Assembly: GCA_021735655.1 (NCBI GenBank)
Contig: JAIPGM010000007.1
Location: 1 to 64,000 of the forward strand
Reading direction: 5' to 3'
Source of the DNA: Candidatus Omnitrophota bacterium
GTDB taxonomy: Bacteria; Omnitrophota; Gorgyraeia; Duberdicusellales; 4484-171
Length of the DNA: 64,000 nt
Below are positions 118-21,471 of this stretch, piece after piece. Numbering within the stretch: position 1 is the first letter of the stretch; every line of letters begins with the position of its first letter. Position numbers and translations under genes: made by a program. The notes beneath the pieces are model-generated. The model was given only the letters and a program-made list of their open reading frames with translations, was not told where the DNA came from and did no database searches.

Positions 118-1110
118 TTATCGTATCATCTCCTTATTTTGTTTCTTTTTTAGAATTTGCTGTTCGATCCACGGATAAGTCTTTTTTAAACCCTCTTCTA
201 ATCTAGTTGAGGGAGCCCAACCCAGTATTTTTTTAATTAAGGTGTTGTCGGAATTACGCCCTCTAACACCTTGAGGTTTTGAAATGTCATATTCTTTCAT
301 AATCTTCTTACCAGAAATTCTAATAACCATATCAGTTAACTCATCAATGGTAACCAATTCATCAGAACCAACATTCAAAGGGTGTATATAATCTGATTCC
401 ATTAGTCGGCAAACACCTTCTAAACAATCATCAATATAGCAAAAAGACCGCGTTTGCTTACCATCGCCCCAAATATCAATGGTGCCCAAATTTTCAGCCA
501 TGATGATTTTTCGACACAAAGCAGCCGGTGCCTTCTCTCTGCCACCATCCCAAGTTCCATAAGGGCCAAATATATTGTGGAATCGTACAACCCGCGTATC
601 CAGTTTATAATCTTTACGATAAGCTTCGCAAAGTATCTCGGAAAATAACTTCTCCCAGCCATAAAATTGATCAGGTTGAGCCGGGTAGGCGTCTTCTTCC
701 TTTAAAGCGGTAACTTTTGAATCGAGTTGTTTGTATTCCGGATAAATACAAGCTGAAGAACTAAACATGAAGCGTTCAATCTTATTCTCTACAGAAGCCT
801 GAAGCATATTTATATTAATTAAACCACTATTATGCATAATATCAGCACCAACAGTCCCGATATAGCCAATACCACCCATGTCAGCCGCAAAATTAAAAAC
901 ATACTCAATATCCTTAGTGGCCTTAAGGCAACTATCGAGATCCCTTAGATCCAAAGTTAATTTTTCTGAATAATACCTATCGGGCATATAATCATCCCAC
1001 TTAATATCAACTACTCTTACAAAGACACCTTCTTCGTAGAGACGCTTAGCTAGATGAGATCCAATAAACCCCCCAGCTCCGGTTACTAAGACTTTTTTAT
1101 TTTGCACCAC
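118..1110 (-). CDS. GDP-mannose 3,5-epimerase-like NAD-dependent sugar epimerase (SDR family)
   Basis: 330 aa with N-terminal Rossmann motif VLVTGAGGFIGSH. Several blocks match my recollection of GDP-mannose 3,5-epimerase: FNFAADMGG, SSACIYPEYKQL, RFHNIFGPYGTWDGGREKAPAALCRK, GDGKQTRSF, GVRGRNSDN. The start overlaps the upstream regulator gene by 14 nt. Confidence 0.7.
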   Translation of the reverse strand: MVQNKKVLVTGAGGFIGSHLAKRLYEEGVFVRVVDIKWDDYMPDRYYSEKLTLDLRDLDSCLKATKDIEYVFNFAADMGGIGYIGTVGADIMHNSGLININMLQASVENKIERFMFSSSACIYPEYKQLDSKVTALKEEDAYPAQPDQFYGWEKLFSEILCEAYRKDYKLDTRVVRFHNIFGPYGTWDGGREKAPAALCRKIIMAENLGTIDIWGDGKQTRSFCYIDDCLEGVCRLMESDYIHPLNVGSDELVTIDELTDMVIRISGKKIMKEYDISKPQGVRGRNSDNTLIKKILGWAPSTRLEEGLKKTYPWIEQQILKKKQNKEMIR

Positions 1111-1519
1111 TTTTTTCTCCTTTTACTTGATAGAATAACTCATTTTTATTTTCTAAATTAACTTCTGTTTTTTCGCCATTGTTTTTTAGTTGGTCTTGAA
1201 GTTCAACCCACTCATTTCGGATATGGTTATATTCAATTTCTTTTTTCTTTAGAAAATGATACATAAGGTGCACTTTTTCCTCTAGGCCTTTTTTAGTGAG
1301 GATATACCTTACCTTTCCTAACTTTCCGGGATTTTTGGAAAAGTTCATCGCTTTTATCAGATTTTTTTTGATCAGGGATTTTAAAAGATAATTGGTTTTA
1401 CCCAAAGAAATATCTAAATAAGAAGATACATCTCTCTGAGTCAAATTATCTCCTGAGGATAGAAGACGAAGGACATTGAAAATGTCCTCTTTCAAGGTGT
1501 GTTTATCTATCTTTTCCAT
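1097..1519 (-). CDS. MarR-family winged-helix transcriptional regulator, EPS-associated subtype
   Basis: 140 aa. HTH segment LTQRDVSSYLDISLGKTNYLLKSLIKKNLIK followed by wing KVRYILTKKGLEEK. The SLGKxNY signature matches the EPS-associated MarR subfamily. Its own promoter-operator module lies immediately upstream. Confidence 0.6.
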   Translation of the reverse strand: MEKIDKHTLKEDIFNVLRLLSSGDNLTQRDVSSYLDISLGKTNYLLKSLIKKNLIKAMNFSKNPGKLGKVRYILTKKGLEEKVHLMYHFLKKKEIEYNHIRNEWVELQDQLKNNGEKTEVNLENKNELFYQVKGEKSGAK

Positions 1520-1578
1520 TAATTATATAACCCGTTAAGAAAACTGAATAAGTATAAGTAAAACAGGACTTATTCTAT

Positions 1579-1623
1579 GTTCATCAATTGAACATATTAT
1601 AAACCTTGGCCTATATATGTCAA
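1579..1623 (-). promoter_or_regulatory. sigma70-like promoter (TTGACA-N16-TATAAT) with overlapping palindromic operator GTTCA-N5-TGAAC (copy 1)
   Basis: Minus-strand reading: GTTGACATATATAGGCCAAGGTTTATAATATGTTCAATTGATGAAC. The -35 is at 1623..1618, the -10 at 1601..1596 and the palindrome at 1593..1579. It is near-identical to a second copy at 5946..5991. Confidence 0.6.
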
Positions 1624-1743: not shown

Positions 1744-3321
1744 TTAATTAGTCGTGTTGCTCTTAGCTTTTTTTCGATAAAGATAGCCTAAAGGACCACG
1801 GTCATGAAAGCGACTTTTAAAATGAAGGGCTGAAATAATCTTCGGTATTATTGTTTTTTCCAAATCAGAATTAAACTCATAAACTAACCGTGAAATCTTA
1901 GACAAAGCATATATCATCGTTCTTTTGATTCGCCCCGGAGAGGTAGATAGTAAATTACGCTTTCCAATTAGAAAAGCCATAGTACCTACTTTTTTCTTGT
2001 ACGCTCTAGTATAAGGGAAAAAAACTTCTTCCCAAATTAAGGTATCATCATAAAGCATACGTTGATAAAAAGTGCTATGTTTATAAGGATTATCGGCGTT
2101 CTGATGAATCTGTAAACCGTAGTTTTGATAGTCTTCTTTTAGCCACCAATCTTTAAAACCATATTGCTCTTTATAGGTCTCATAAATTATAGTGCCAGGA
2201 TAAGGTACGATAGCACCGGAAACCTGATAAATATGAACTTGATCAAAATGCCTTTTAATATATTTAATATTATTAACAACTGCCAATTCATCTTCCCAAG
2301 GAAAGCCAGTCATCAGATTGACATAAATACGAAATCCTAATTCAGCTGAACAATCAACTGCCTTATGGGCTTGCCCCAAAGTAATACCTTTACGAATTCT
2401 TTTTAAAGTTTCAGAATCTCCACTTTCAATCCCATAGCTAACCATATAACAACCAGCTTCCTTCATCGTTGATAACATTTCAGAATCAACGATATTGGCT
2501 CGAGTTGAACAACACCAAGCTATATCCAACTTGTTATCCTTTAAGGACTGGCAGAAATCTCGGACATATTTTTTATTAAAAGTAAAGGTATCATCAGCAA
2601 TAACAAAAGACTTAATATTATGAGCGTCTTTTCGATGTTTAATCTCTCTAATTACCTCATCGACCGGATGATACCTAATTTTTTGACCAAAGATAGCCCG
2701 ATCACAAAAAGTACAGCCGGCCGGACAACCCCTTGAACAATAAATACGATGAAAACCTTTTAGCAATCCCATGGAAGTACGAAAACGCTCTTGATCAAAA
2801 CAACTAAAATCCAATTTTGGTAAGTCGTTGAGATTAGCTATATACTCGCGTGAAGGATTATGCACTACACATCCTTTAGGATCTTTAAAACTAATTCCTT
2901 TTATTGATTCTAAAGATAGGCCTCTAGCCCCGCTCCAAAAATCACATAATTCTGAAAGGGTTATCTCGCCTTCGTTACGGACTACAATATCTACTCCATT
3001 ATCGAGTGCCTCATCAGGGCATGAAGTAGCATGCGGACCACCAGCAATTACAGTTAACCCTGGTTTCTTAATTCGTTTAATAGTTTTATAAACATCTGGG
3101 ACGCGATAAGTAGAAAGGTGAAAACCGACAAAGGTTGGTTGATAAACCTCAGTTGCCTCTGCCAAATCGTCCCATCCCAAAAAATTATTAAAAGAATTAA
3201 CAATAGCTTTGACCTCATAACCTTTTTCTTTCAGAACTGATGATAGGTAGGCAAAACCAGTTGGCATTTCCGAAATCGGATTGGGAAAAATTAAAATGAA
3301 CTTCTTAGCTTTAGTTAACAT
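1744..3321 (-). CDS. B12-binding domain radical SAM protein (class B radical SAM, methyltransferase-like)
   Basis: 525 aa. The N-terminal cobalamin-binding fold is glycine-rich (TVIAGGPHATSCPDEAL). The radical SAM cluster motif CPAGCTFC (CxxxCxxC) lies in RIYCSRGCPAGCTFCDRA. Confidence 0.75.
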   Translation of the reverse strand: MLTKAKKFILIFPNPISEMPTGFAYLSSVLKEKGYEVKAIVNSFNNFLGWDDLAEATEVYQPTFVGFHLSTYRVPDVYKTIKRIKKPGLTVIAGGPHATSCPDEALDNGVDIVVRNEGEITLSELCDFWSGARGLSLESIKGISFKDPKGCVVHNPSREYIANLNDLPKLDFSCFDQERFRTSMGLLKGFHRIYCSRGCPAGCTFCDRAIFGQKIRYHPVDEVIREIKHRKDAHNIKSFVIADDTFTFNKKYVRDFCQSLKDNKLDIAWCCSTRANIVDSEMLSTMKEAGCYMVSYGIESGDSETLKRIRKGITLGQAHKAVDCSAELGFRIYVNLMTGFPWEDELAVVNNIKYIKRHFDQVHIYQVSGAIVPYPGTIIYETYKEQYGFKDWWLKEDYQNYGLQIHQNADNPYKHSTFYQRMLYDDTLIWEEVFFPYTRAYKKKVGTMAFLIGKRNLLSTSPGRIKRTMIYALSKISRLVYEFNSDLEKTIIPKIISALHFKSRFHDRGPLGYLYRKKAKSNTTN

Positions 3322-3518: not shown

Positions 3519-3677
3519 GTTAAAACAAGGTATAAATAAAGGGCGTCACGGCTGAACTTTCAGTAAAAACAACTAAAACCCCTAATAATAGTAAGATAAT
3601 AACTATTGGCAGAAGCCACCACTTCTTACGAAGTCTTATAAAACTCCAAAACTCCTTTAAAATTGTCAACTTACTCA
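3519..3677 (-). CDS. SxtK-like / DUF5989-family small membrane protein (52 aa); not in ORF track
   Basis: Translation: MSKLTILKEFWSFIRLRKKWWLLPIVIILLLLGVLVVFTESSAVTPFIYTLF. The RBS AAGGAG lies 7 nt upstream of the ATG. The RKKWWLLPI and PFIYTLF signatures match the family that recurrently follows SxtJ and carbamoyltransferase genes. Confidence 0.65.
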
Positions 3678-3689
3678 TGTTTGTCTCCT

Positions 3690-4103
3690 TTAAAACTGAT
3701 TCTCATAGTATTTTTTATCTAAATCAGCCTCAGGCTTAAGAATCCAATAGCTATCTCTTTTTTGGTTAAATTCTGAATCCAAAAACTTTTTACCGAATAA
3801 TCGAGAAAAAACCGCAATCGGAGTAACCACCAAATAAAATAAAATAGATAAAATTAATCCGGTCAAAGCCCAACTGACAATAATGAATAGAGCTCTTAAA
3901 ATCTTATGTAATGGTTTCAAAGCTAAAGGAAAAATAAACGAGAATCCAAAAAGAAAAAACGAAACTACAAAAAACTGAGGGTAAAAAATTCCTTTGCGCC
4001 ATAAAAATAATAAACCCCACAAAATAAAAACTACGCTTAAAGTTAAGCCAAACCTAGCGAGTTCCCTTTTGTCGCTTTTTATGCCTTTTATTTCTTCAAT
4101 CAT
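3690..4103 (-). CDS. SxtJ-like small membrane protein
   Basis: 137 aa with several TM helices. The pattern RFGLTLSVVFILWGL...YLVVTPIAVFSRLFGKKFLD resembles SxtJ-family proteins. It sits 3 nt downstream of the carbamoyltransferase and upstream of the SxtK-like ORF, the same order as sxtI-J-K. Confidence 0.6.
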   Translation of the reverse strand: MIEEIKGIKSDKRELARFGLTLSVVFILWGLLFLWRKGIFYPQFFVVSFFLFGFSFIFPLALKPLHKILRALFIIVSWALTGLILSILFYLVVTPIAVFSRLFGKKFLDSEFNQKRDSYWILKPEADLDKKYYENQF

Positions 4104-4105
4104 AA

Positions 4106-5923
4106 TTAGTCCAACCCAAACTCTCTAAGCCAAGTAATATCTTTATCTAAAGGCTTTTGTTCTTTTTTCTCCAACAAATAGTTTCCGACAATAAGATAGT
4201 CCATATTAGTACACATAAAACACAAATAGGCATCTTCGGGGGTGCAAACTATCGGCTCACCACGCACATTAAAGGAAGTATTAATGATAACTGGACAACC
4301 ATACTTTTGATCCATTTTCCTTAATAACCGGTAATACAAAGGATTATCCTCCTCTTCCACGGTCTGAACCCTTGCTGAATAATCCACATGAGTAACTGCC
4401 GGAATTTCTGAACGCTCAATTTGCAATTGATCCAAACCAGAAAGACTCTCTTGCTCTTTAGTTATTGATTTTCGAACTCTCTGGCTAACCGGAGCAACCA
4501 AAAGCATATAGGGACTTTCGACTTCCAGCTCAAAGTAATCAGAAGCCTTCTCTTTAGTTACTGAAGGCGCAAAAGACCTAAAAGGCTCCCGAAACTTTAT
4601 TTTAAGGTTTATTATCTCCTGCATCTTGGCTGAACGAGCATCGCCAAGAATAGAGCGGTTGCCCAAAGCCCGGGGTCCAAACTCCATTCTCCCTTGAAAC
4701 CAACCGATTACTTTACCAGCGGCAATTAAATCAGCTACTTTTTCGGGAATTTCATCATCATTCAAAAAAGTGTAAGGGACATTATTGCTCTTTAAATACT
4801 CTTCAATACAATCCCTATCAAAGCTAGGCCCCAAATAAGAACCTTGCTGAAAGTCTTTTTTCCGATCAACTTCTCTTTTATTTCCTAGACATTGATACCA
4901 GGCAAACAAGGCTGCCCCCAAGGCGCCTCCGGCGTCTCCGGCAGCCGGCTGGATCCAAATATTTTTAAAGTTGCTTTCGCGTAAAATTCGACCGTTAGCA
5001 ACACAATTTAAAGCTACACCTCCGGCTAAACAAAGATTTTCCTGATTAGTCTGTTGATATAGATGATTGACCATGCGTAACATTACCTCTTCAGTTACCG
5101 CCTGAATAGATGCTGCTAAATCCATATGTTCTTGACTAAATTTAGACTCTGGTTTACGAGGCTCTTGGCCAAATAACCTATGAAAACGGCGGTTAGTCAT
5201 AGTCAAACCAAAGCAATAGTTAAAATAGTTCATATTTAATTTAAAGGAACCATCTTCCTTTAAATCGATCAATTCACGAAATATCAACTCCTTATATTTA
5301 GGCTCACCATAGGGAGCTAAGCCCATAAGTTTATACTCTCCGGAATTAACTTTAAACCCAAGATAGTAAGTAAAAGCTGAATAAAGTAATCCTAAAGAAT
5401 GCGGGAAATGAATTTCAGCTAAAATCTTTATCTGGTTATCTTTACCAACTCCATAACTAGCCGTAGCCCACTCACCTACCCCATCAATGGTTAAAAAAGC
5501 AGCTTTCGAAAAAGGTGAAGCGAAAAATGCCGAAGCAGCATGTGACTGATGATGTTCAGTAAAAATAATTTTTCCTTTATATTTAAGTTGACTACCGATA
5601 AAGTCCTTTATCCAAAGCTTTTGTTTTATCCATAAAGGCATTGCTTTTAAAAAAGAGCTAATCCCTCTCGGAGCATAGGCTAAGTAGGTTTCTAAAATAC
5701 GCTCAAATTTAATAAAAGGTTTATCGTAGAAAGCAACTAAATCTAATTCCTTAGAAGTAAGCCCACTATTCTCTAGGCAGTAATTAATGGCATTTTTAGG
5801 AAAGGAAGAATCATGTTTTTTGCGGCTGAATCTTTCTTCTTGGACAGCTGAAACTATTTGCCCGTCTTGGATGAGACAGGCGGCACTATCATGATAAAAG
5901 GCAGAAATTCCTAGAATATTCAT
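4106..5923 (-). CDS. NodU/CmcH-family carbamoyltransferase
   Basis: 605 aa. The N-terminal ILGISAFYHDSAACLIQDGQIVSAVQEERFSRKKHD is typical of the NodU/CmcH/SxtI family, and the protein has a C-terminal carbamoyltransferase domain. Confidence 0.85.
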   Translation of the reverse strand: MNILGISAFYHDSAACLIQDGQIVSAVQEERFSRKKHDSSFPKNAINYCLENSGLTSKELDLVAFYDKPFIKFERILETYLAYAPRGISSFLKAMPLWIKQKLWIKDFIGSQLKYKGKIIFTEHHQSHAASAFFASPFSKAAFLTIDGVGEWATASYGVGKDNQIKILAEIHFPHSLGLLYSAFTYYLGFKVNSGEYKLMGLAPYGEPKYKELIFRELIDLKEDGSFKLNMNYFNYCFGLTMTNRRFHRLFGQEPRKPESKFSQEHMDLAASIQAVTEEVMLRMVNHLYQQTNQENLCLAGGVALNCVANGRILRESNFKNIWIQPAAGDAGGALGAALFAWYQCLGNKREVDRKKDFQQGSYLGPSFDRDCIEEYLKSNNVPYTFLNDDEIPEKVADLIAAGKVIGWFQGRMEFGPRALGNRSILGDARSAKMQEIINLKIKFREPFRSFAPSVTKEKASDYFELEVESPYMLLVAPVSQRVRKSITKEQESLSGLDQLQIERSEIPAVTHVDYSARVQTVEEEDNPLYYRLLRKMDQKYGCPVIINTSFNVRGEPIVCTPEDAYLCFMCTNMDYLIVGNYLLEKKEQKPLDKDITWLREFGLD

Positions 5924-5945
5924 AAATAATTCATCTAGCGACTCT

Positions 5946-5991
5946 GTTCAATTGATGAACAATATTATAGATTCTTACCTATATATGTCAA
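5946..5991 (-). promoter_or_regulatory. sigma70-like promoter (TTGACA-N16-TATAAT) with overlapping palindromic operator GTTCA-N5-TGAAC (copy 2)
   Basis: Minus-strand reading: GGTTGACATATATAGGTAAGAATCTATAATATTGTTCATCAATTGAAC. The -35 is at 5991..5986, the -10 at 5969..5964 and the palindrome at 5960..5946. The carbamoyltransferase ATG is about 25 nt downstream. Confidence 0.6.
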
Positions 5992-6014: not shown

Positions 6015-6905
6015 TCAAAAACGAAGGGTTATTCCTGAGCCGAAATAGAGGTCTTGATGAGTTTTCTTGATTTGAATAAAATACTCTAACTCGTTTTCAG
6101 TAAACAGCTTATGATTAAAAGTAAGGGCTAAGCCCAATGATTTATCCTGAACGTCACGGAGACTAAAAACTAAATCCTTATTTTTAGCTATTTTAACCTT
6201 TGCTCCAAGATAGACTTTTTTTAACTGACCAGACCCATAGTCAACAATGAAGCTTAAACCCAATTTACGGCTAAAGTTCCAGCGGCCGTATAGACTAATA
6301 ATCTTTTCCCTTTTTAAATCACCCACCCCAATCCCTAAACGGTATTTTATGGCTCCCTTTTTAGGATAAATGTTAGGCGATTCAACCTGAACTTTAAAAT
6401 TAAAAACACTCCCTCGGCCTCCCGATAAAATATACTTAAGTCTATTACGTTCGTTAATCTGCCAAAATCCATCAAAAACAATAGACTCTTTTACCCTCTT
6501 TTTTGTCTTAAGTTTTGCCTTCTCATAAGAGTAAACTATTTTCTGCTGCTTGTTTAACTGCCAAATACCACCGAAAGTAAGCGTCTCGGGATTTCGCTTT
6601 CTTTTAACTTCAAAGCTAAGACGATTAAATTTATCAGCCCGCCACAAGCCCTTCAACTTCAAAAAAGAAACTATCTGCTTATTCTTCTCTGACTTGGTTT
6701 TAACTTCAAAGGTTATAAAATCAGCTCCGGCCTCAGTAATCTTTCCCTTTAGAGTTAGCTTATTATCTATGGAACTCTTATCTTCCTCGGCCTTAAAAAC
6801 TAATTCATGGTTTGAAGTTAGCTTCCAACGACCATCAAAAGCAGAATTTCCAATAAACAAAAGATTATCCTTATCTAAAGAAAGTTTTGATTTAGTTTTA
6901 CTCAT
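6015..6905 (-). CDS. hypothetical protein with five Trp-containing beta-type repeats
   Basis: 296 aa, lysine-rich, no obvious signal peptide. The motif G-x-W-x-[LI]-x4-[KR]-[LI]-x-[FY] recurs five times: DGRWKLTSNHELVF, KGLWRADKFNRLSF, GGIWQLNKQQKIVY, DGFWQINERNRLKY, YGRWNFSRKLGLSF. Confidence 0.4.
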   Translation of the reverse strand: MSKTKSKLSLDKDNLLFIGNSAFDGRWKLTSNHELVFKAEEDKSSIDNKLTLKGKITEAGADFITFEVKTKSEKNKQIVSFLKLKGLWRADKFNRLSFEVKRKRNPETLTFGGIWQLNKQQKIVYSYEKAKLKTKKRVKESIVFDGFWQINERNRLKYILSGGRGSVFNFKVQVESPNIYPKKGAIKYRLGIGVGDLKREKIISLYGRWNFSRKLGLSFIVDYGSGQLKKVYLGAKVKIAKNKDLVFSLRDVQDKSLGLALTFNHKLFTENELEYFIQIKKTHQDLYFGSGITLRF

Positions 6906-7772: not shown

Positions 7773-8384
7773 TTAGATATAACCTTTTTGAGATAAATAA
7801 TTTAAAATGCTCTTTGCTGCTTCTTCCTTGGTTAGCTTACCAGTATCAATAACTATTTCAGCCTGCTCTGGTTCTTCATAGGGAGCAGAAACCCCGGTAA
7901 ACTGCTTAATTTCACCACTGCGAGCCTTTTTATAAAGCCCCTTAGGGTCTCTTTGTTCGCAAATTGCAAGATCAGCCTTAACAAAAACTTCAATAAAATC
8001 ACCTTGCTTCATAAGGCTCCGGGCCTTATCTCTGTCTTTTCTGTAAGGAGAAATAAAAGCAGTTATAGCTAAAGTTCCGGCTTCAGAAAATAATTTTGCC
8101 ACCTCACTAATTCTTCGAATATTTTCTTGGCGATCTTCCGGAGAAAAACCCAAGTTACTATTTAAGCCGTGGCGAACATTGTCACCATCTAGAAGATAAA
8201 CCTGGTGTTCCTTCTCAAAAAGCATTGCCTGAAGCTCAACAGCAACTGTAGATTTACCGCTTGAAGGTAAACCCGTAAACCAAATAACTGCCCCCTTGTG
8301 CTTATTGCGCTTTTCTCTGTCCTGTTTAGATATCCCTGATTCATGCCATGTAATATTTGTGCTCTTTCTTTGTTCTTGATTCAT
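7773..8384 (-). CDS. cysC: adenylyl-sulfate kinase
   Basis: 203 aa. Canonical P-loop [26 protein letters not shown] and FISPY motifs are all present. Confidence 0.85.
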
Positions 8385-9708: not shown

Positions 9709-10437
9709 TTAACTTAAAAATTTATTAACTTCTAAATATTTTATTATTTTCTTTGCTGCTTCCTCAGGTGAAATATCTTTGGTGCTAAGAGTAATTTCGG
9801 GGTTTTGAGGCGGCTCATAAGGATCATCAATACCAGTAAAAAGTTTCAATAATCCCTGCCTTGCTTTTTTATAAAGACCGCGAGGATCTCTCTTTTCACA
9901 CTCCTCAAGCGGTGTATCAACATATACTTCAATAAAATTATTACACATTTTCCTCACAAAACTTCTTGATTCTTGATAAGGTGAAATAAAAGAAGCTATA
10001 ACAATAACTTTATTTTTCTCAAGCAAGCTAGCTAATAACCCTACTCGCTTGATATGTCTATCTCTCTCAGACTTAGTAAAACCGATCTTAGGAAATATTG
10101 CTCTGATTTTTTCACCGTCTAAGCGTTCAACATTAAAAGACTTAGCCGTAAGTATCCGATAAAGATTCTCAGCAATGGCTTTTTTCCCTGCGGCAGAAAG
10201 TCCGGTTAACCAAATCACACAAGGAATCGCCTCTCTACGACCAAAAGAAATTTTATCCCAAATTCGTTCATGAAAAAAATAAATCGCCATCTTGCTAACA
10301 AATTCCAAAAAACCAACCGTAAAGGCTAAACTTATTTTTCTTGTAAAAATAAATACAATGATTGATGTGGCTATAGTGCCGGCTGATCTCCAAGTAATAG
10401 CCTTAAGTATCGAACGTGCCTTTGTCTCTCTAAACAT
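9709..10437 (-). CDS. DUF2061-like N-terminal membrane domain fused to an APS-kinase-like domain with degenerate catalytic motifs
   Basis: 242 aa. Residues 1-65 contain RSILKAITWRSAGTIATS...FFHERIW (DUF2061-like, two TM helices). The C-terminal domain aligns with CysC, but the P-loop is GLSAAGKKA (canonical GLPSSGKST), DGDNVR is replaced by DGEKIR, and ENIRR by RHIKR. The FISPY and RDPRGLYKKAR blocks are retained. Confidence 0.6.
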   Translation of the reverse strand: MFRETKARSILKAITWRSAGTIATSIIVFIFTRKISLAFTVGFLEFVSKMAIYFFHERIWDKISFGRREAIPCVIWLTGLSAAGKKAIAENLYRILTAKSFNVERLDGEKIRAIFPKIGFTKSERDRHIKRVGLLASLLEKNKVIVIASFISPYQESRSFVRKMCNNFIEVYVDTPLEECEKRDPRGLYKKARQGLLKLFTGIDDPYEPPQNPEITLSTKDISPEEAAKKIIKYLEVNKFLS

Positions 10438-18152: not shown

Positions 18153-20561
18153 TTAATAAGTAGTATAATATTGAGATTTAGCCCCCTCATGCGTCTTATC
18201 AAAAGTTATGCTCAAACTGGGAAAGGCCTTTAAAACAAATTCAAACCAAACAGTATAGTTTTTTCCGCCAACTGAGGCCCTCTTAACATCTAAACCGAGG
18301 TCAAGCCACCAACAATGCAAATCAGTTCTTACTTTATATTGCTGTTCAAATAAGTCGCCACGATTATATTCATAACGCAAATAACTTCCTAACTTTACCT
18401 TCGGGGTTAACTGATAGGAAAAATCAAAAGTTCCCTGAGTGTCAGTTACCCGGGTATAGCGATGGCCATAGGTAAAAGAGTACCTTTCCTTCTCTACTTC
18501 TTCACCAGCTTCAAACACCTTATATTTACCTTTGGTAGTAAAATCAAGATTAAAAGAAGTTATTCTTCCTAGCTTGTTACCGTCTGAATTAGCATCATAA
18601 GTAACGTTAGAGGTAAGTGATAAGCCCTCCTTAGGATAGATCTCTAAATCAGCGGTTATAGTAGTAATTCGACTATTAGCACCTTCAGGATTAATCGTAT
18701 AGTTAAGAGCCGGGCTAAAATAAACAAAGTCCCACTTCTCATTTTCCTTATTTTTAACCTGCAACTTATTGCTTAGAACAAAACTAACTGTCTCGGACCG
18801 ACTTAAGCTATCAATTCCATCAAATTGAAAAACATTAGCGTTAGCTACAGTTGGCTCATGAGCGTAACTATAAGTTATCTCAGGAGTTATAAGGTGGCGC
18901 ACCTTATCTATCTCCTCGCCAAAAATATCCCAATCCACATCAAAAACCTTATAAAGTCTGCTACTTAAAGATGTTCCGCTGGTAAAGCCAATTCGCCAAA
19001 TATCCTCATCGCCAAAAGCATTCTTAGAGTAATATATTGAATTTAAACCAATGTTAGGTGAAATACTAAGCCACTTTATCTTATCCGAGTAGCTTAAGGT
19101 ATTTTTACCGTAAAATCTAAAAGCATCATCATCCAAATCAGAATTAGCATTCTTTTTAGCTAGATTAGATATCTTTTCACTAGAGTTAAAGTAAAGCTTA
19201 CTGTTTCCTAACTGTTGACTGAAAAAATCATAGCTAAGCTCTGGAAGGTACTCACTCATGCTTTCGTAACGATTAAACCTTTTCTGAGTTAATAAAGATA
19301 AAGAAGAATTCTGAAAAGGATAACGCATGAGAAGGTAACTCTTGGGGTTAGGGTTAAGCTCATACTCTTCCTCAAAGAAATCTTTAACAAAAAACTCATC
19401 GGAAAATTTATGAAACTCAGCAATTATCGATAAGTTCTTTATCGGTTCACCGTCATAAGATAATTCTGCCTTGTAGCGATCGTCTTCTAAATATTTATCA
19501 GCCTTTCCTGAGCGATCACCGTGAACTTTAAAAAGACTATTTCGCTTGCCGATTTGATAAAGCTTATCTTGAATCATATAGTAACGAGCCAAGGCTTTAC
19601 CCATTTTTTTGCTCTCCATCTTATGGGTTAAACCAAACCCCCAGCCTCTTTCCTCATACCAATCAATATTAAACCAATCCGTATGCTCTTCATTGAGTTG
19701 ATAGCGCCAGCGAGTCAGTAAAAAGTAACCCAGCTCATCATTGTGCCCCGGAACTATCTCAGCCGGAAAAGAGGTATCCTTTAAAGACTGGGAAAAATAA
19801 GGAATATAGAATACCGGAACTTTCCCCACCTTTAAAGTTACTTTTCTGGCTACTACTTTATCGCCGGGATAAATGGTTACCTCTTTTGACACCATCCGGT
19901 AGTGCGGCTCAGCTAAATCACAAGTTGTCATGTAGCCGTTTCTCATTACCAATTTGTTTTTACCTATTTTTTCTCCTTCCGGAGCCTCTCCATAAAAAGG
20001 AGTACTCTCAAAACGAATATTATTTATATCAGCATTATAAGTATTAAAATCATAAACTGCTGTTTCACCATAGAGAACTGTTCCCTCTCTGATTACTTTA
20101 ATATTTCCAGTAATATTAGCGATATTAGTATTAACGTCAAAGATTCCCTCGTCACAGTAAAGCTCAACATCTTTCTGGACCATCTTCACATTGCCTTTAG
20201 CATAAATTTTACCCACACCGCGCTGAAAATCTATTTCATCAGCATCAACAATTACCGGTATTTTTTCACTACCAGAAGTGGCTTTTTGATCAGGCTTAGA
20301 GCTATCATCGGTCTTTTTGTCAGTTTTAGCTTCTTTAGCTTTTTCATCTTGTTTAACTTCTTGAACTAGAGCCTTATCTTCTAAAGGAGATACCTTTTCC
20401 TCTCTAGTTAAAGAAACCGCATCAAGAGTAGACTTAACTGTAGTCAATTTACTAACCAATATCCCTTTGTTTTTGGAAGCAGAAGATAGCGGCGTGGTTT
20501 CACTATTAGAAAAAGCAACCAGCGGTAAGAAAAAAACAACCAGTACAATCAGTTTTTTCAT
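18153..20561 (-). CDS. lptD: LPS-assembly outer-membrane protein LptD (OstA family)
   Basis: About 800 aa. Signal peptide MKKLIVLVVFFLPLVAFS. The OstA-like N-domain is PVIVDADEIDFQRGVGKIYAKGNVKMVQKDVELYCDEG...GNIKVIREGTVLYGE. The large beta-rich C-terminal region ends in an aromatic residue. Confidence 0.6.
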   Translation of the reverse strand: MKKLIVLVVFFLPLVAFSNSETTPLSSASKNKGILVSKLTTVKSTLDAVSLTREEKVSPLEDKALVQEVKQDEKAKEAKTDKKTDDSSKPDQKATSGSEKIPVIVDADEIDFQRGVGKIYAKGNVKMVQKDVELYCDEGIFDVNTNIANITGNIKVIREGTVLYGETAVYDFNTYNADINNIRFESTPFYGEAPEGEKIGKNKLVMRNGYMTTCDLAEPHYRMVSKEVTIYPGDKVVARKVTLKVGKVPVFYIPYFSQSLKDTSFPAEIVPGHNDELGYFLLTRWRYQLNEEHTDWFNIDWYEERGWGFGLTHKMESKKMGKALARYYMIQDKLYQIGKRNSLFKVHGDRSGKADKYLEDDRYKAELSYDGEPIKNLSIIAEFHKFSDEFFVKDFFEEEYELNPNPKSYLLMRYPFQNSSLSLLTQKRFNRYESMSEYLPELSYDFFSQQLGNSKLYFNSSEKISNLAKKNANSDLDDDAFRFYGKNTLSYSDKIKWLSISPNIGLNSIYYSKNAFGDEDIWRIGFTSGTSLSSRLYKVFDVDWDIFGEEIDKVRHLITPEITYSYAHEPTVANANVFQFDGIDSLSRSETVSFVLSNKLQVKNKENEKWDFVYFSPALNYTINPEGANSRITTITADLEIYPKEGLSLTSNVTYDANSDGNKLGRITSFNLDFTTKGKYKVFEAGEEVEKERYSFTYGHRYTRVTDTQGTFDFSYQLTPKVKLGSYLRYEYNRGDLFEQQYKVRTDLHCWWLDLGLDVKRASVGGKNYTVWFEFVLKAFPSLSITFDKTHEGAKSQYYTTY

Positions 20562-20562
20562 A

Positions 20563-21471
20563 TTACTGTTTCTCAAGCTGCTCCTTAACCAGCAAGGCGG
20601 CTCCGACTATCCCCGGCTGTTTTAACTGAGCCTTGAGAACTTTTAAATTCTTCACTTGAGGCCACATGGCCTGTTGTCTTATCACCTGTAAAAGATATGG
20701 TCTAAACAAACCTAAGGCTCCAGACACCCCTCCACCTAGGATAATCGCCTCGGGGTTAAATACATTAACCATGCCCGATAAAAACTTACCTAAATTATAT
20801 GAAAATTCCTTCCAAAGCATAATAGCCTGTTTTTCACCTTTTAGGCCCCTTTGAAATATCTCACTTACTTCCTTAATCTTAGTTTTATTTCCTTTGAGTT
20901 GCCTATAGCGCTTTAAGAGATAACCATTACCAGTATAAGTCTCAATACAGCCTCTGGCTCCACAGCCACAAAGGTTTCCCTTTAAAGTTAAAGGTACATG
21001 ACCTAACTCAGCAGCGCTGGTTCTCCCAGTTAGAAGCTTGCCATCAATTAATACTGCTCCGCCTAAGCCAGTGCCGAGAGTTAAAAAAATAGCTTGTTTA
21101 AACCCCCGACCAGCACCACAGCGAGCCTCAGCAAGACCAAAAAGATTAGCATCATTACCTATAGCTACCGGAAGCTTGAGCTGTTTGATAAGCACCTCTT
21201 TTAAGGGAAAGTTCTTCCAACCAGGAATGTTGGGAAGATAATAGATGAATCCTTTTTTTGTATCGATTATGCCGGGGGCACCAATACCAAGGCCTTTAAT
21301 TGAAAAACCTTTAAAATCCTTTAATAAAGATTTAAGGTTCTGGATAAAAACGGTTTTTTTTCTTAAGTCAGCCGATTGGTAAATTCTTTCTTTAACTACT
21401 ACCCCCTTGGGGCTTACCAACCCAGCTTTTATATAAGTACCACCCCAATCAATGCCTAAAAAGACTGCCAC
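20563..21471 (-). CDS. ROK-family sugar kinase (glucokinase-like)
   Basis: 302 aa with LGIDWGGTYIKAGLV, the ROK signature region LGTGLGGAVLIDGKLLTG and the Cys motif CGCGARGC. Confidence 0.75.
   Translation of the reverse strand: MAVFLGIDWGGTYIKAGLVSPKGVVVKERIYQSADLRKKTVFIQNLKSLLKDFKGFSIKGLGIGAPGIIDTKKGFIYYLPNIPGWKNFPLKEVLIKQLKLPVAIGNDANLFGLAEARCGAGRGFKQAIFLTLGTGLGGAVLIDGKLLTGRTSAAELGHVPLTLKGNLCGCGARGCIETYTGNGYLLKRYRQLKGNKTKIKEVSEIFQRGLKGEKQAIMLWKEFSYNLGKFLSGMVNVFNPEAIILGGGVSGALGLFRPYLLQVIRQQAMWPQVKNLKVLKAQLKQPGIVGAALLVKEQLEKQ

Follow-up and report, generated by a model that had tools for sequence, protein, structure and literature searches.

Why should a bacterium of the Candidatus Omnitrophota carry, among genes for nucleotide-sugar metabolism, three genes that repeat the sxtI-sxtJ-sxtK order of cyanobacterial saxitoxin clusters, and what do the two small membrane proteins encoded there contribute to the carbamoyltransferase beside them? 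The locus that raises this question lies in a 64,000-nucleotide (nt) stretch of DNA (assembly GCA_021735655.1, contig JAIPGM010000007.1, positions 1 to 64,000 of the forward strand), and "the window" refers here to the whole of that stretch. From 2009 to 2025, the saxitoxin literature that we consulted has treated SxtJ and SxtK as "unknown" or "regulatory" partners of the carbamoyltransferase, and the statement in an initial annotation of the window that the role of the two small membrane partners is undescribed holds for that literature. The three genes, with product lengths in amino acids (aa), are as follows:

4106-5923, minus strand: class III (TobZ/NovN/GdmN-type) O-carbamoyltransferase, 605 aa, matching PF02543 and PF16861 of Pfam
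3690-4103, minus strand: divergent SxtJ-family membrane protein, 137 aa, assigned only via PF19588 relatives
3520-3678, minus strand: DUF5989 (SxtK-like) single-pass membrane protein, 52 aa, matching PF19451 of Pfam

Overall, we find that the window trio is an ordinary, somewhat divergent copy of a very common and strongly conserved module that is known but uncharacterised. The genes are co-directional and closely packed on the minus strand (3520-5923), and they probably form one operon. The stop codon of the transferase is separated from the ATG of the SxtJ-like gene by 2 nt (TAA-TT-ATG), and 11 nt lie between the SxtJ-like gene and the 52-aa open reading frame (ORF), gaps that fit co-translation. 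The initial annotation placed the trio and its three ORFs correctly and quoted the 52-aa peptide exactly, although two of its positions need adjustment: the 52-aa ORF with its stop codon occupies 3520-3678 rather than 3519..3677, and the gap after the transferase is 2 nt rather than 3. The good ribosome-binding site that it credited to the 52-aa ORF is an AAGGAG sequence with a 6-nt spacer. This ORF is indeed missing from the accompanying ORF track, probably owing to a length threshold, but the further claim that the gene is unannotated proved wrong, as GenBank already holds it as MCF7908415.1, "DUF5989 family protein", and it is also called in the Logan assembly. The transferase is entered as MCF7908417.1, "carbamoyltransferase", and the nameless member of the trio is the middle one (MCF7908416.1, "hypothetical protein"), which carries that label because the Pfam SxtJ model fails on the 137-aa protein.

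In terms of distribution, an SxtJ-like profile run against cluster representatives (clusters at 50% identity) retrieved 16,577 of them at E <= 0.001 and 9,806 at E <= 1e-10. Working outward from SxtJ in species-representative genomes, we assembled a sample of 68 loci in which a transferase was sought within 6 kb; these loci span Omnitrophota, Ignavibacteria, Bacteroidota, Nitrospirota, Planctomycetota, Patescibacteria, Zixibacteria, Acidobacteriota, Desulfobacterota and Alpha- and Betaproteobacteria, among others. A transferase homologue is present in 67 of the 68, nearly always adjacent (full-length copies at E 1e-220 or lower), and a DUF5989 protein in 62, a conservation at the protein level that identifies the 52-aa ORF as a real gene. 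Working outward from the transferase, a second sample comprised 80 metagenome loci whose enzymes are 58-75% identical to that of the window; among the 48 that were evaluable, with at least 700 nt on both sides, SxtJ was found in 46 and DUF5989 in 38. Two gene orders recur, one with the transferase first, followed by SxtJ and DUF5989, as in the window and in sxt clusters, and the other with SxtJ and DUF5989 preceding the transferase, and the trio is kept together in both. As judged from this linkage, SxtJ-like and DUF5989 proteins are near-obligate partners of the transferase clade in many phyla, and the conserved synteny that the initial annotation expected of the triad is borne out in both samples. 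Its description of the triad as lying outside a toxin cluster was right as to location but not in presenting this as an exception, since a non-toxin setting is the norm for the module. The carriers are mostly metagenome-assembled genomes, with a genome record of Hoeflea sp. AS16 and assemblies of Ignavibacterium and Rhodoferax also represented.

The 605-aa protein matches both of its Pfam domains essentially end to end. PF02543, the Kae1-like domain at the N-terminus, is matched at 374.2 bits (E 1e-111) over profile positions 2-346 of 346, and PF16861, the C-terminal YrdC-like domain, at 245.3 bits (E 3e-73) over positions 1-170 of 170; the structurally solved enzymes NovN, GdmN and TobZ are matched at E 1e-98 to 6e-79. 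Specifically, residues H124, H128, D147 and D330 of the transferase align with the GdmN iron ligands H133, H137, D156 and D333, and H11 aligns with GdmN H27, the proposed general base. The roles of these GdmN residues, two His and two Asp as iron ligands and a further His as the proposed catalytic base, are taken from published work (PMC9633730). Because both domains are full length and the iron ligands and catalytic His are conserved, the protein is a complete O-carbamoyltransferase of class III and is expected to be catalytically competent. The earlier assignment to a NodU/CmcH type is thus upheld in the form of a TobZ/NodU/CmcH-type class III enzyme. Orthology to NodU itself was considered and rejected, as the NCBIfam equivalog model NF041651 scores 138.9 bits against a cut-off of 1000. 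With respect to conservation, the transferases of 50 complete trios are 58-74% identical to the window enzyme, and identity reaches 74-77% for proteins whose source names are Elusimicrobia, Planctomycetota, Nitrospinae and Nitrospirae. Such high conservation across phyla hints at a single conserved acceptor.

The profile searches that the initial annotation had proposed for all three proteins gave matches for the transferase (PF02543, PF16861) and the 52-aa protein (PF19451) and no direct match for the 137-aa protein. The 52-aa protein scores 84.3 bits on PF19451, the DUF5989 family (E 6e-24, profile positions 2-49 of 49), against a cut-off of 27. DUF5989 proteins consist of a basic N-terminus followed by one transmembrane helix, and two motifs, RKKWWL.PI and a C-terminal APFIYTLF-COOH, are near-invariant across the 62 loci. 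We presume DUF5989 to be the SxtK family on the basis of size and of position after sxtJ; the published genes measure 399-441 nt for sxtJ and 162-165 nt for sxtK. The claim that the trio reproduces the sxtI-sxtJ-sxtK order is supported by both order and sizes.

For the 137-aa protein, no Pfam or NCBIfam model gave a match even at E <= 10, PF19588 (gathering threshold 24.4 bits) included, and no NCBIfam model matches SxtJ or DUF5989 relatives. The protein is, though, 49% identical over 100% coverage (E 6e-34) to a relative, P0003, that scores 40.1 bits on PF19588, and 91 of its 94 aligned relatives match that family. It is filed here, by transitive homology, as a divergent but intact member of the SxtJ family. 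Near-invariant positions in the family are F18, G19, P59, L62, W69, M70, G77, P95, Y119, W120 and Q136, eight of which are kept in the window protein. Three long helices in its sequence are hydrophobic, and its C-terminal tail is charged; in an AlphaFold2 model built from the 94-sequence alignment (mean predicted local distance difference test score 88.7), the helices span 12-35, 41-57 and 59-102, and the charged tail beyond them is extended. The mean number of basic residues in SxtJ proteins is 4.7 for the N-terminal part, 1.5 for loop 1, 2.0 for loop 2 and 8.4 for the C-terminal tail, a distribution that, under the positive-inside rule, mildly favours a topology with the C-terminus inside.

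Two natural in-frame gene fusions bear on the relation between the enzyme and SxtJ. In one (P0095), an N-terminal transferase domain is followed by a full SxtJ, the YrdC-like domain being missing; in the other (L105, 3971-5962), a full transferase is followed by the last SxtJ helix and tail, with no DUF5989 gene nearby. These fusions suggest a physical association between the two proteins. A separate arrangement was seen in Candidatus Brocadia (JAMXDF010000006.1, locus L075, 9977-12563), where the trio is split and all of its parts are still kept: the transferase and SxtJ are separated by an inserted DUF2281/PIN toxin-antitoxin pair, SxtJ and DUF5989 by a GDSL gene.

The window trio is preceded by a candidate promoter with an adjoining inverted repeat, and both recur once, ahead of a regulator gene:

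5964..5991, minus strand: sigma-70-type promoter core, TTGACA-16 nt-TATAAT, 12/12 consensus, 41 nt upstream of the transferase ATG and the best site in the region
5945-5961: candidate operator, a 17-bp inverted repeat TGTTCA-N5-TGAACA (TGTTCATCAATTGAACA) starting 2 nt after the -10 hexamer
1578..1623, minus strand: second promoter core and 17-bp repeat, the latter in reverse-complement orientation, upstream of the MarR gene
1097-1519, minus strand: MarR-family EPS-associated transcriptional regulator, 140 aa, matching TIGR04176 (MarR_EPS)

In the second copy, the core occupies 1623-1594 and the repeat follows immediately at 1578-1594. The composite core TTGACATATATAGG-N8-TATAATAT, with 22 specified bases, occurs exactly twice in the 64 kb against an expectation of 0.00, and the 17-bp repeat has two matches in the window against 0.13 expected, a count reached in 0 of 100 shuffles. 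Allowing up to 3 mismatches, no third copy of the operator was found in the window, and in a search over 74 loci the site was absent from the other 73. A specific protein site is favoured because the non-palindromic centre of the 17-mer is conserved as well. The regulator itself scores 94.7 bits on TIGR04176, above the curated cut-off of 88, and is the candidate repressor for both operators; we infer that it autoregulates and also represses the trio. The suggestion that the unit has its own operator-controlled promoter is accordingly strengthened, since promoter core and operator both recur exactly ahead of the gene for the MarR-type EPS regulator.

The surroundings of the trio were described initially as a nucleotide-sugar and PAPS (3'-phosphoadenosine 5'-phosphosulfate) locus, and our analysis confirms this. 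One flank holds CysQ, two adenosine 5'-phosphosulfate (APS) kinases, ATP sulfurylase, a DegT aminotransferase and epimerases, and the other a B12-binding radical S-adenosylmethionine (SAM) enzyme, the MarR regulator, RmlA/RmlC-type genes and further epimerase genes; from approximately 21 kb onward, the window contains mostly housekeeping genes. Among the neighbours, the following stand out:

6015-6905, minus strand: 296-aa protein directly upstream of the trio promoter, with approximately five internal G.W....N.L.F-type repeats
1744-3321, minus strand: B12-binding radical SAM enzyme, 525 aa, 198 nt downstream of the 52-aa gene, with its own promoter-like site at 3386-3358
7773-8384 and 9709-10437, minus strand: two APS kinase paralogues on either side of ATP sulfurylase, followed by a CysQ-type phosphatase
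18153-20576, minus strand: 802-807-aa protein at the edge of the sugar locus, with no Pfam hit on record

The 296-aa protein has no Pfam or NCBIfam match. For the radical SAM enzyme, HpnJ is the top NCBIfam match, but its 185 bits fall far short of the cut-off of 577.6, which makes the enzyme a member of an unassigned subfamily, and a homologue stands beside the trio in only one related locus (L040), which also belongs to Omnitrophota; the enzyme may form part of the same glycan-tailoring set as the trio. One of the APS kinase paralogues carries an N-terminal DUF2061 membrane domain, and the 10 kb on either side of the trio show no sulfotransferase gene. The 802-807-aa protein has one homologue near a trio, in a Planctomycetia locus (L010).

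Elsewhere, the recurrent neighbours of the trio are nucleotide-sugar epimerases and dehydratases, glycosyltransferases of families GT2, GT4 and GT9, and Wzy_C proteins. PAPS genes occur in none of the 68 related loci, and neither the MarR regulator nor the 296-aa protein of the window has a counterpart beside the trio there; the association of all three with the trio is local to this genome. The earlier conclusion that the locus implies carbamoylation of a glycan or another acceptor is plausible as a reading of genomic context, with the PAPS component of that context being specific to this genome. The most recurrent additional neighbour is a GDSL/SGNH protein, found in 36 of the 68 loci (within 6 kb) and 20 of the 48 (within 4 kb), its gene sometimes lying between those of the transferase and SxtJ or between those of SxtJ and DUF5989. 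In 50 of 51 such proteins, the N-terminus comprises a basic stretch and one hydrophobic anchor, because of which the catalytic domain should face outward. These neighbours (L003-L153; for example, L028, 4862-5977) also share a conserved L-E-x-G/A-L-R-x-F motif at the end of the anchor helix, which suggests a family-specific membrane interaction. No GDSL/SGNH (sxtL-like) homologue was found in the 64-kb window.

With respect to mechanism, the reading that we consider best, and hold with moderate confidence, is that of a membrane-docked carbamoyltransferase that acts on a membrane-proximal glycan and is repressed by a MarR-type EPS regulator. By homology, the YrdC-like domain would convert carbamoyl phosphate and ATP to carbamoyl-AMP, and the Kae1-like domain, which binds iron, would transfer the carbamoyl group onto a hydroxyl acceptor. 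SxtJ and the DUF5989 protein would form a small membrane complex that keeps the otherwise soluble enzyme at the cytoplasmic membrane. The acceptor would be membrane-proximal, most likely a lipid-linked sugar unit of a surface glycan, with its nucleotide-sugar precursors supplied by the products of the flanking genes. Transcription would proceed from the consensus sigma-70 promoter, and the MarR protein, encoded 4.4 kb downstream, would bind the 17-bp repeat at its own promoter and at that of the trio, repressing both, such that carbamoylation would be co-regulated with the deoxythymidine-diphosphate-sugar operon.

Several observations weigh against this proposal. At the level of the locus, the 10 kb on either side of the window trio contain no glycosyltransferase, flippase or polymerase, and the link between operator and regulator rests only on two copies of one site. 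A transferase that remains 58-77% identical across phyla would be surprising if its acceptors were variable glycans. A simple anchor explains neither the frequent outward-facing SGNH partner nor the almost invariant outward C-terminus (APFIYTLF) of the DUF5989 protein. The SxtJ of the window is changed at three near-invariant positions (W69L, M70R and G77S), and the topology of the family is ambiguous, since both fusions imply an N-terminus-in arrangement, against the orientation that the positive-inside rule mildly favours. The fusions themselves are single metagenomic instances, each lacking part of one partner, and may be deletion artefacts. Finally, no solved homologue of SxtJ or of the 52-aa protein was found, as sequence searches of the PDB and Foldseek searches returned chance-level matches only.

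A rival reading makes the trio part of a relay across the envelope, analogous to the MBOAT/AT3 plus SGNH systems that O-acetylate polysaccharides. Here, the carbamoyl group would be activated by the transferase in the cytoplasm and moved across the membrane, as such or on a carrier, by SxtJ and SxtK, and an anchored SGNH/GDSL protein on the outer side would add carbamoyl to, or trim it from, an exported glycan. The frequency of nearby GDSL/SGNH genes (36 of 68 and 20 of 48 loci, sometimes inside the trio), the basic N-terminus and anchor of 50 of 51 of their products, which place the domain outward, the retention of sxtI-J-K-L together in cyanobacterial clusters and the near-invariant outward C-terminus of SxtK all speak for such an arrangement. 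Nonetheless, we consider it unlikely, as SxtJ and SxtK together offer approximately four helices, far below known acyl-translocating proteins, carbamoyl-AMP is labile, and to our knowledge no carrier is known for a carbamoyl relay. Moreover, about half of all loci have no GDSL/SGNH gene nearby, and with no such homologue in its 64 kb, the trio of the window must work without one. A more conservative view, in line with the "regulatory" label of saxitoxin reviews, makes SxtJ and SxtK accessory factors that support the stability, folding or activity of a transferase whose acceptor is soluble, for example a nucleotide sugar, with membrane location incidental to substrate choice. This fits the saxitoxin pathway, where the decarbamoyl-saxitoxin acceptor is small and soluble and sxtJ and sxtK are retained all the same, and it fits the window locus, where nearly all genes encode nucleotide-sugar enzymes and a glycosyltransferase is absent from the vicinity. 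It is no more probable than the relay, however, given that TobZ, NovN and GdmN act alone on soluble acceptors, so that the partners mark something specific to this clade, and given that strong conservation of transmembrane and extracytoplasmic segments would not be expected of a mere stabiliser.

The tight linkage of two membrane proteins to the enzyme would also suit a small exporter or protection device for the carbamoylated product, with no catalytic role. We regard this as quite improbable: four helices are available, sequence and fold searches reveal no likeness to SMR, GtrA or other small transporters, and sxt clusters have separate dedicated exporters in sxtF and sxtM. Least probable of all, to the point of being almost negligible, is that the trio belongs to, or is left over from, a secondary-metabolite cluster, whether for a saxitoxin-like alkaloid or for another product. 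Its gene order does equal sxtI-J-K, but a module present in about 16,600 protein clusters extends far beyond toxin producers. A saxitoxin cluster was looked for directly in the Pfam-annotated stretches of the window (approximately 1-22 kb and 14-54 kb), which take in 10 kb on each side of the trio and leave out the last approximately 10 kb of the window, and was rejected. No SxtA-like polyketide synthase, amidinotransferase or ring-hydroxylating oxygenase was present there, nor were the core genes sxtA, sxtG, sxtB, sxtD, sxtS, sxtU and sxtH/T; the other genes in these stretches are sugar, PAPS or housekeeping genes.

In terms of novelty, the Pfam families of both small proteins and the GenBank name of the smaller one are already known, and what is new in the window is the reassignment of a hypothetical protein to SxtJ and the operator shared with the MarR gene. 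For the window, the gain is accordingly small, namely one protein that can now be named better and a MarR-operator pair that can be tested. The wider point is that the trio is not a peculiarity of toxin synthesis; it is found very commonly in the surface-glycan loci of many phyla, as a module whose genes are closely linked and unusually well conserved, and it points to a largely unstudied glycan modification, O-carbamoylation. Our literature search returned no paper in which the trio is described as a module found generally in glycan loci and none for DUF5989, and a search for carbamoyltransferases together with lipopolysaccharide or O-antigen gave nothing relevant. Since other bacteria carry the trio, the function of SxtJ and SxtK can be studied outside the slow-growing cyanobacteria. 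A bolder interpretation, which we put forward only tentatively and think improbable, is that the transferase, SxtJ and SxtK, often together with an anchored SGNH protein, constitute an unrecognised envelope-modification system of many phyla that supplies one conserved envelope acceptor with carbamoyl groups, possibly working across the membrane, and that the sxtI-J-K-L blocks of saxitoxin and suomilide clusters are co-opted copies of this housekeeping-like module.

Among characterised systems, the solved enzymes TobZ, NovN and GdmN share the two-domain Kae1-like and YrdC-like architecture of the window transferase, which retains their iron ligands and catalytic His as well as their motifs for the nucleotide and for carbamoyl phosphate. 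TobZ, NovN and GdmN modify soluble antibiotics without SxtJ or SxtK partners, whereas the window enzyme belongs to a clade that has these partners and is 58-77% identical across phyla. It also lacks the C-terminal dimerisation domain present in GdmN and NovN, and it differs from its solved relatives by an insertion of approximately 18-30 residues around positions 470-500. NodU, the Nod-factor 6-O-carbamoyltransferase, is a member of the same superfamily and not an orthologue. NodU carbamoylates a glycan that is made beside sulfation (NodPQ/NodH) and methylation functions, and this setting resembles the mix of PAPS, radical SAM and transferase genes in the window.

O-acetylation systems that pair MBOAT or AT3 proteins with SGNH proteins (AlgI/J/F/X, PatA/B and OafA) resemble approximately half of the trio loci in combining an outward-facing anchored SGNH protein with a cytoplasmic activator. 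Their membrane components are polytopic and the transferred group is acetyl, in contrast to the three plus one helices and the carbamoyl group of the trio, and the window, with neither an SGNH partner nor a polytopic translocator, falls outside this class. A close likeness is that to the sxtI-J-K genes and the corresponding block of the Nostoc suomilide cluster, where the order is the same and the products are a transferase of approximately 605-640 aa, a membrane protein of approximately 135 aa and a peptide of approximately 54 aa. Saxitoxin SxtJ gives its name to the Pfam family to which the relatives of the window protein belong, the window protein itself being too divergent for that model. 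In saxitoxin clusters, sxtL lies beside sxtK, and the suomilide cluster combines sxtI, sxtJ and sxtK with two SGNH genes, an association mirrored by the GDSL/SGNH neighbour of related trios. The window differs from the sxt cluster in having no other sxt genes in its annotated stretches and no sxtL-like gene, and its trio is set among genes for surface-glycan precursor and PAPS synthesis, whereas the saxitoxin and suomilide counterparts serve alkaloid or peptide synthesis.

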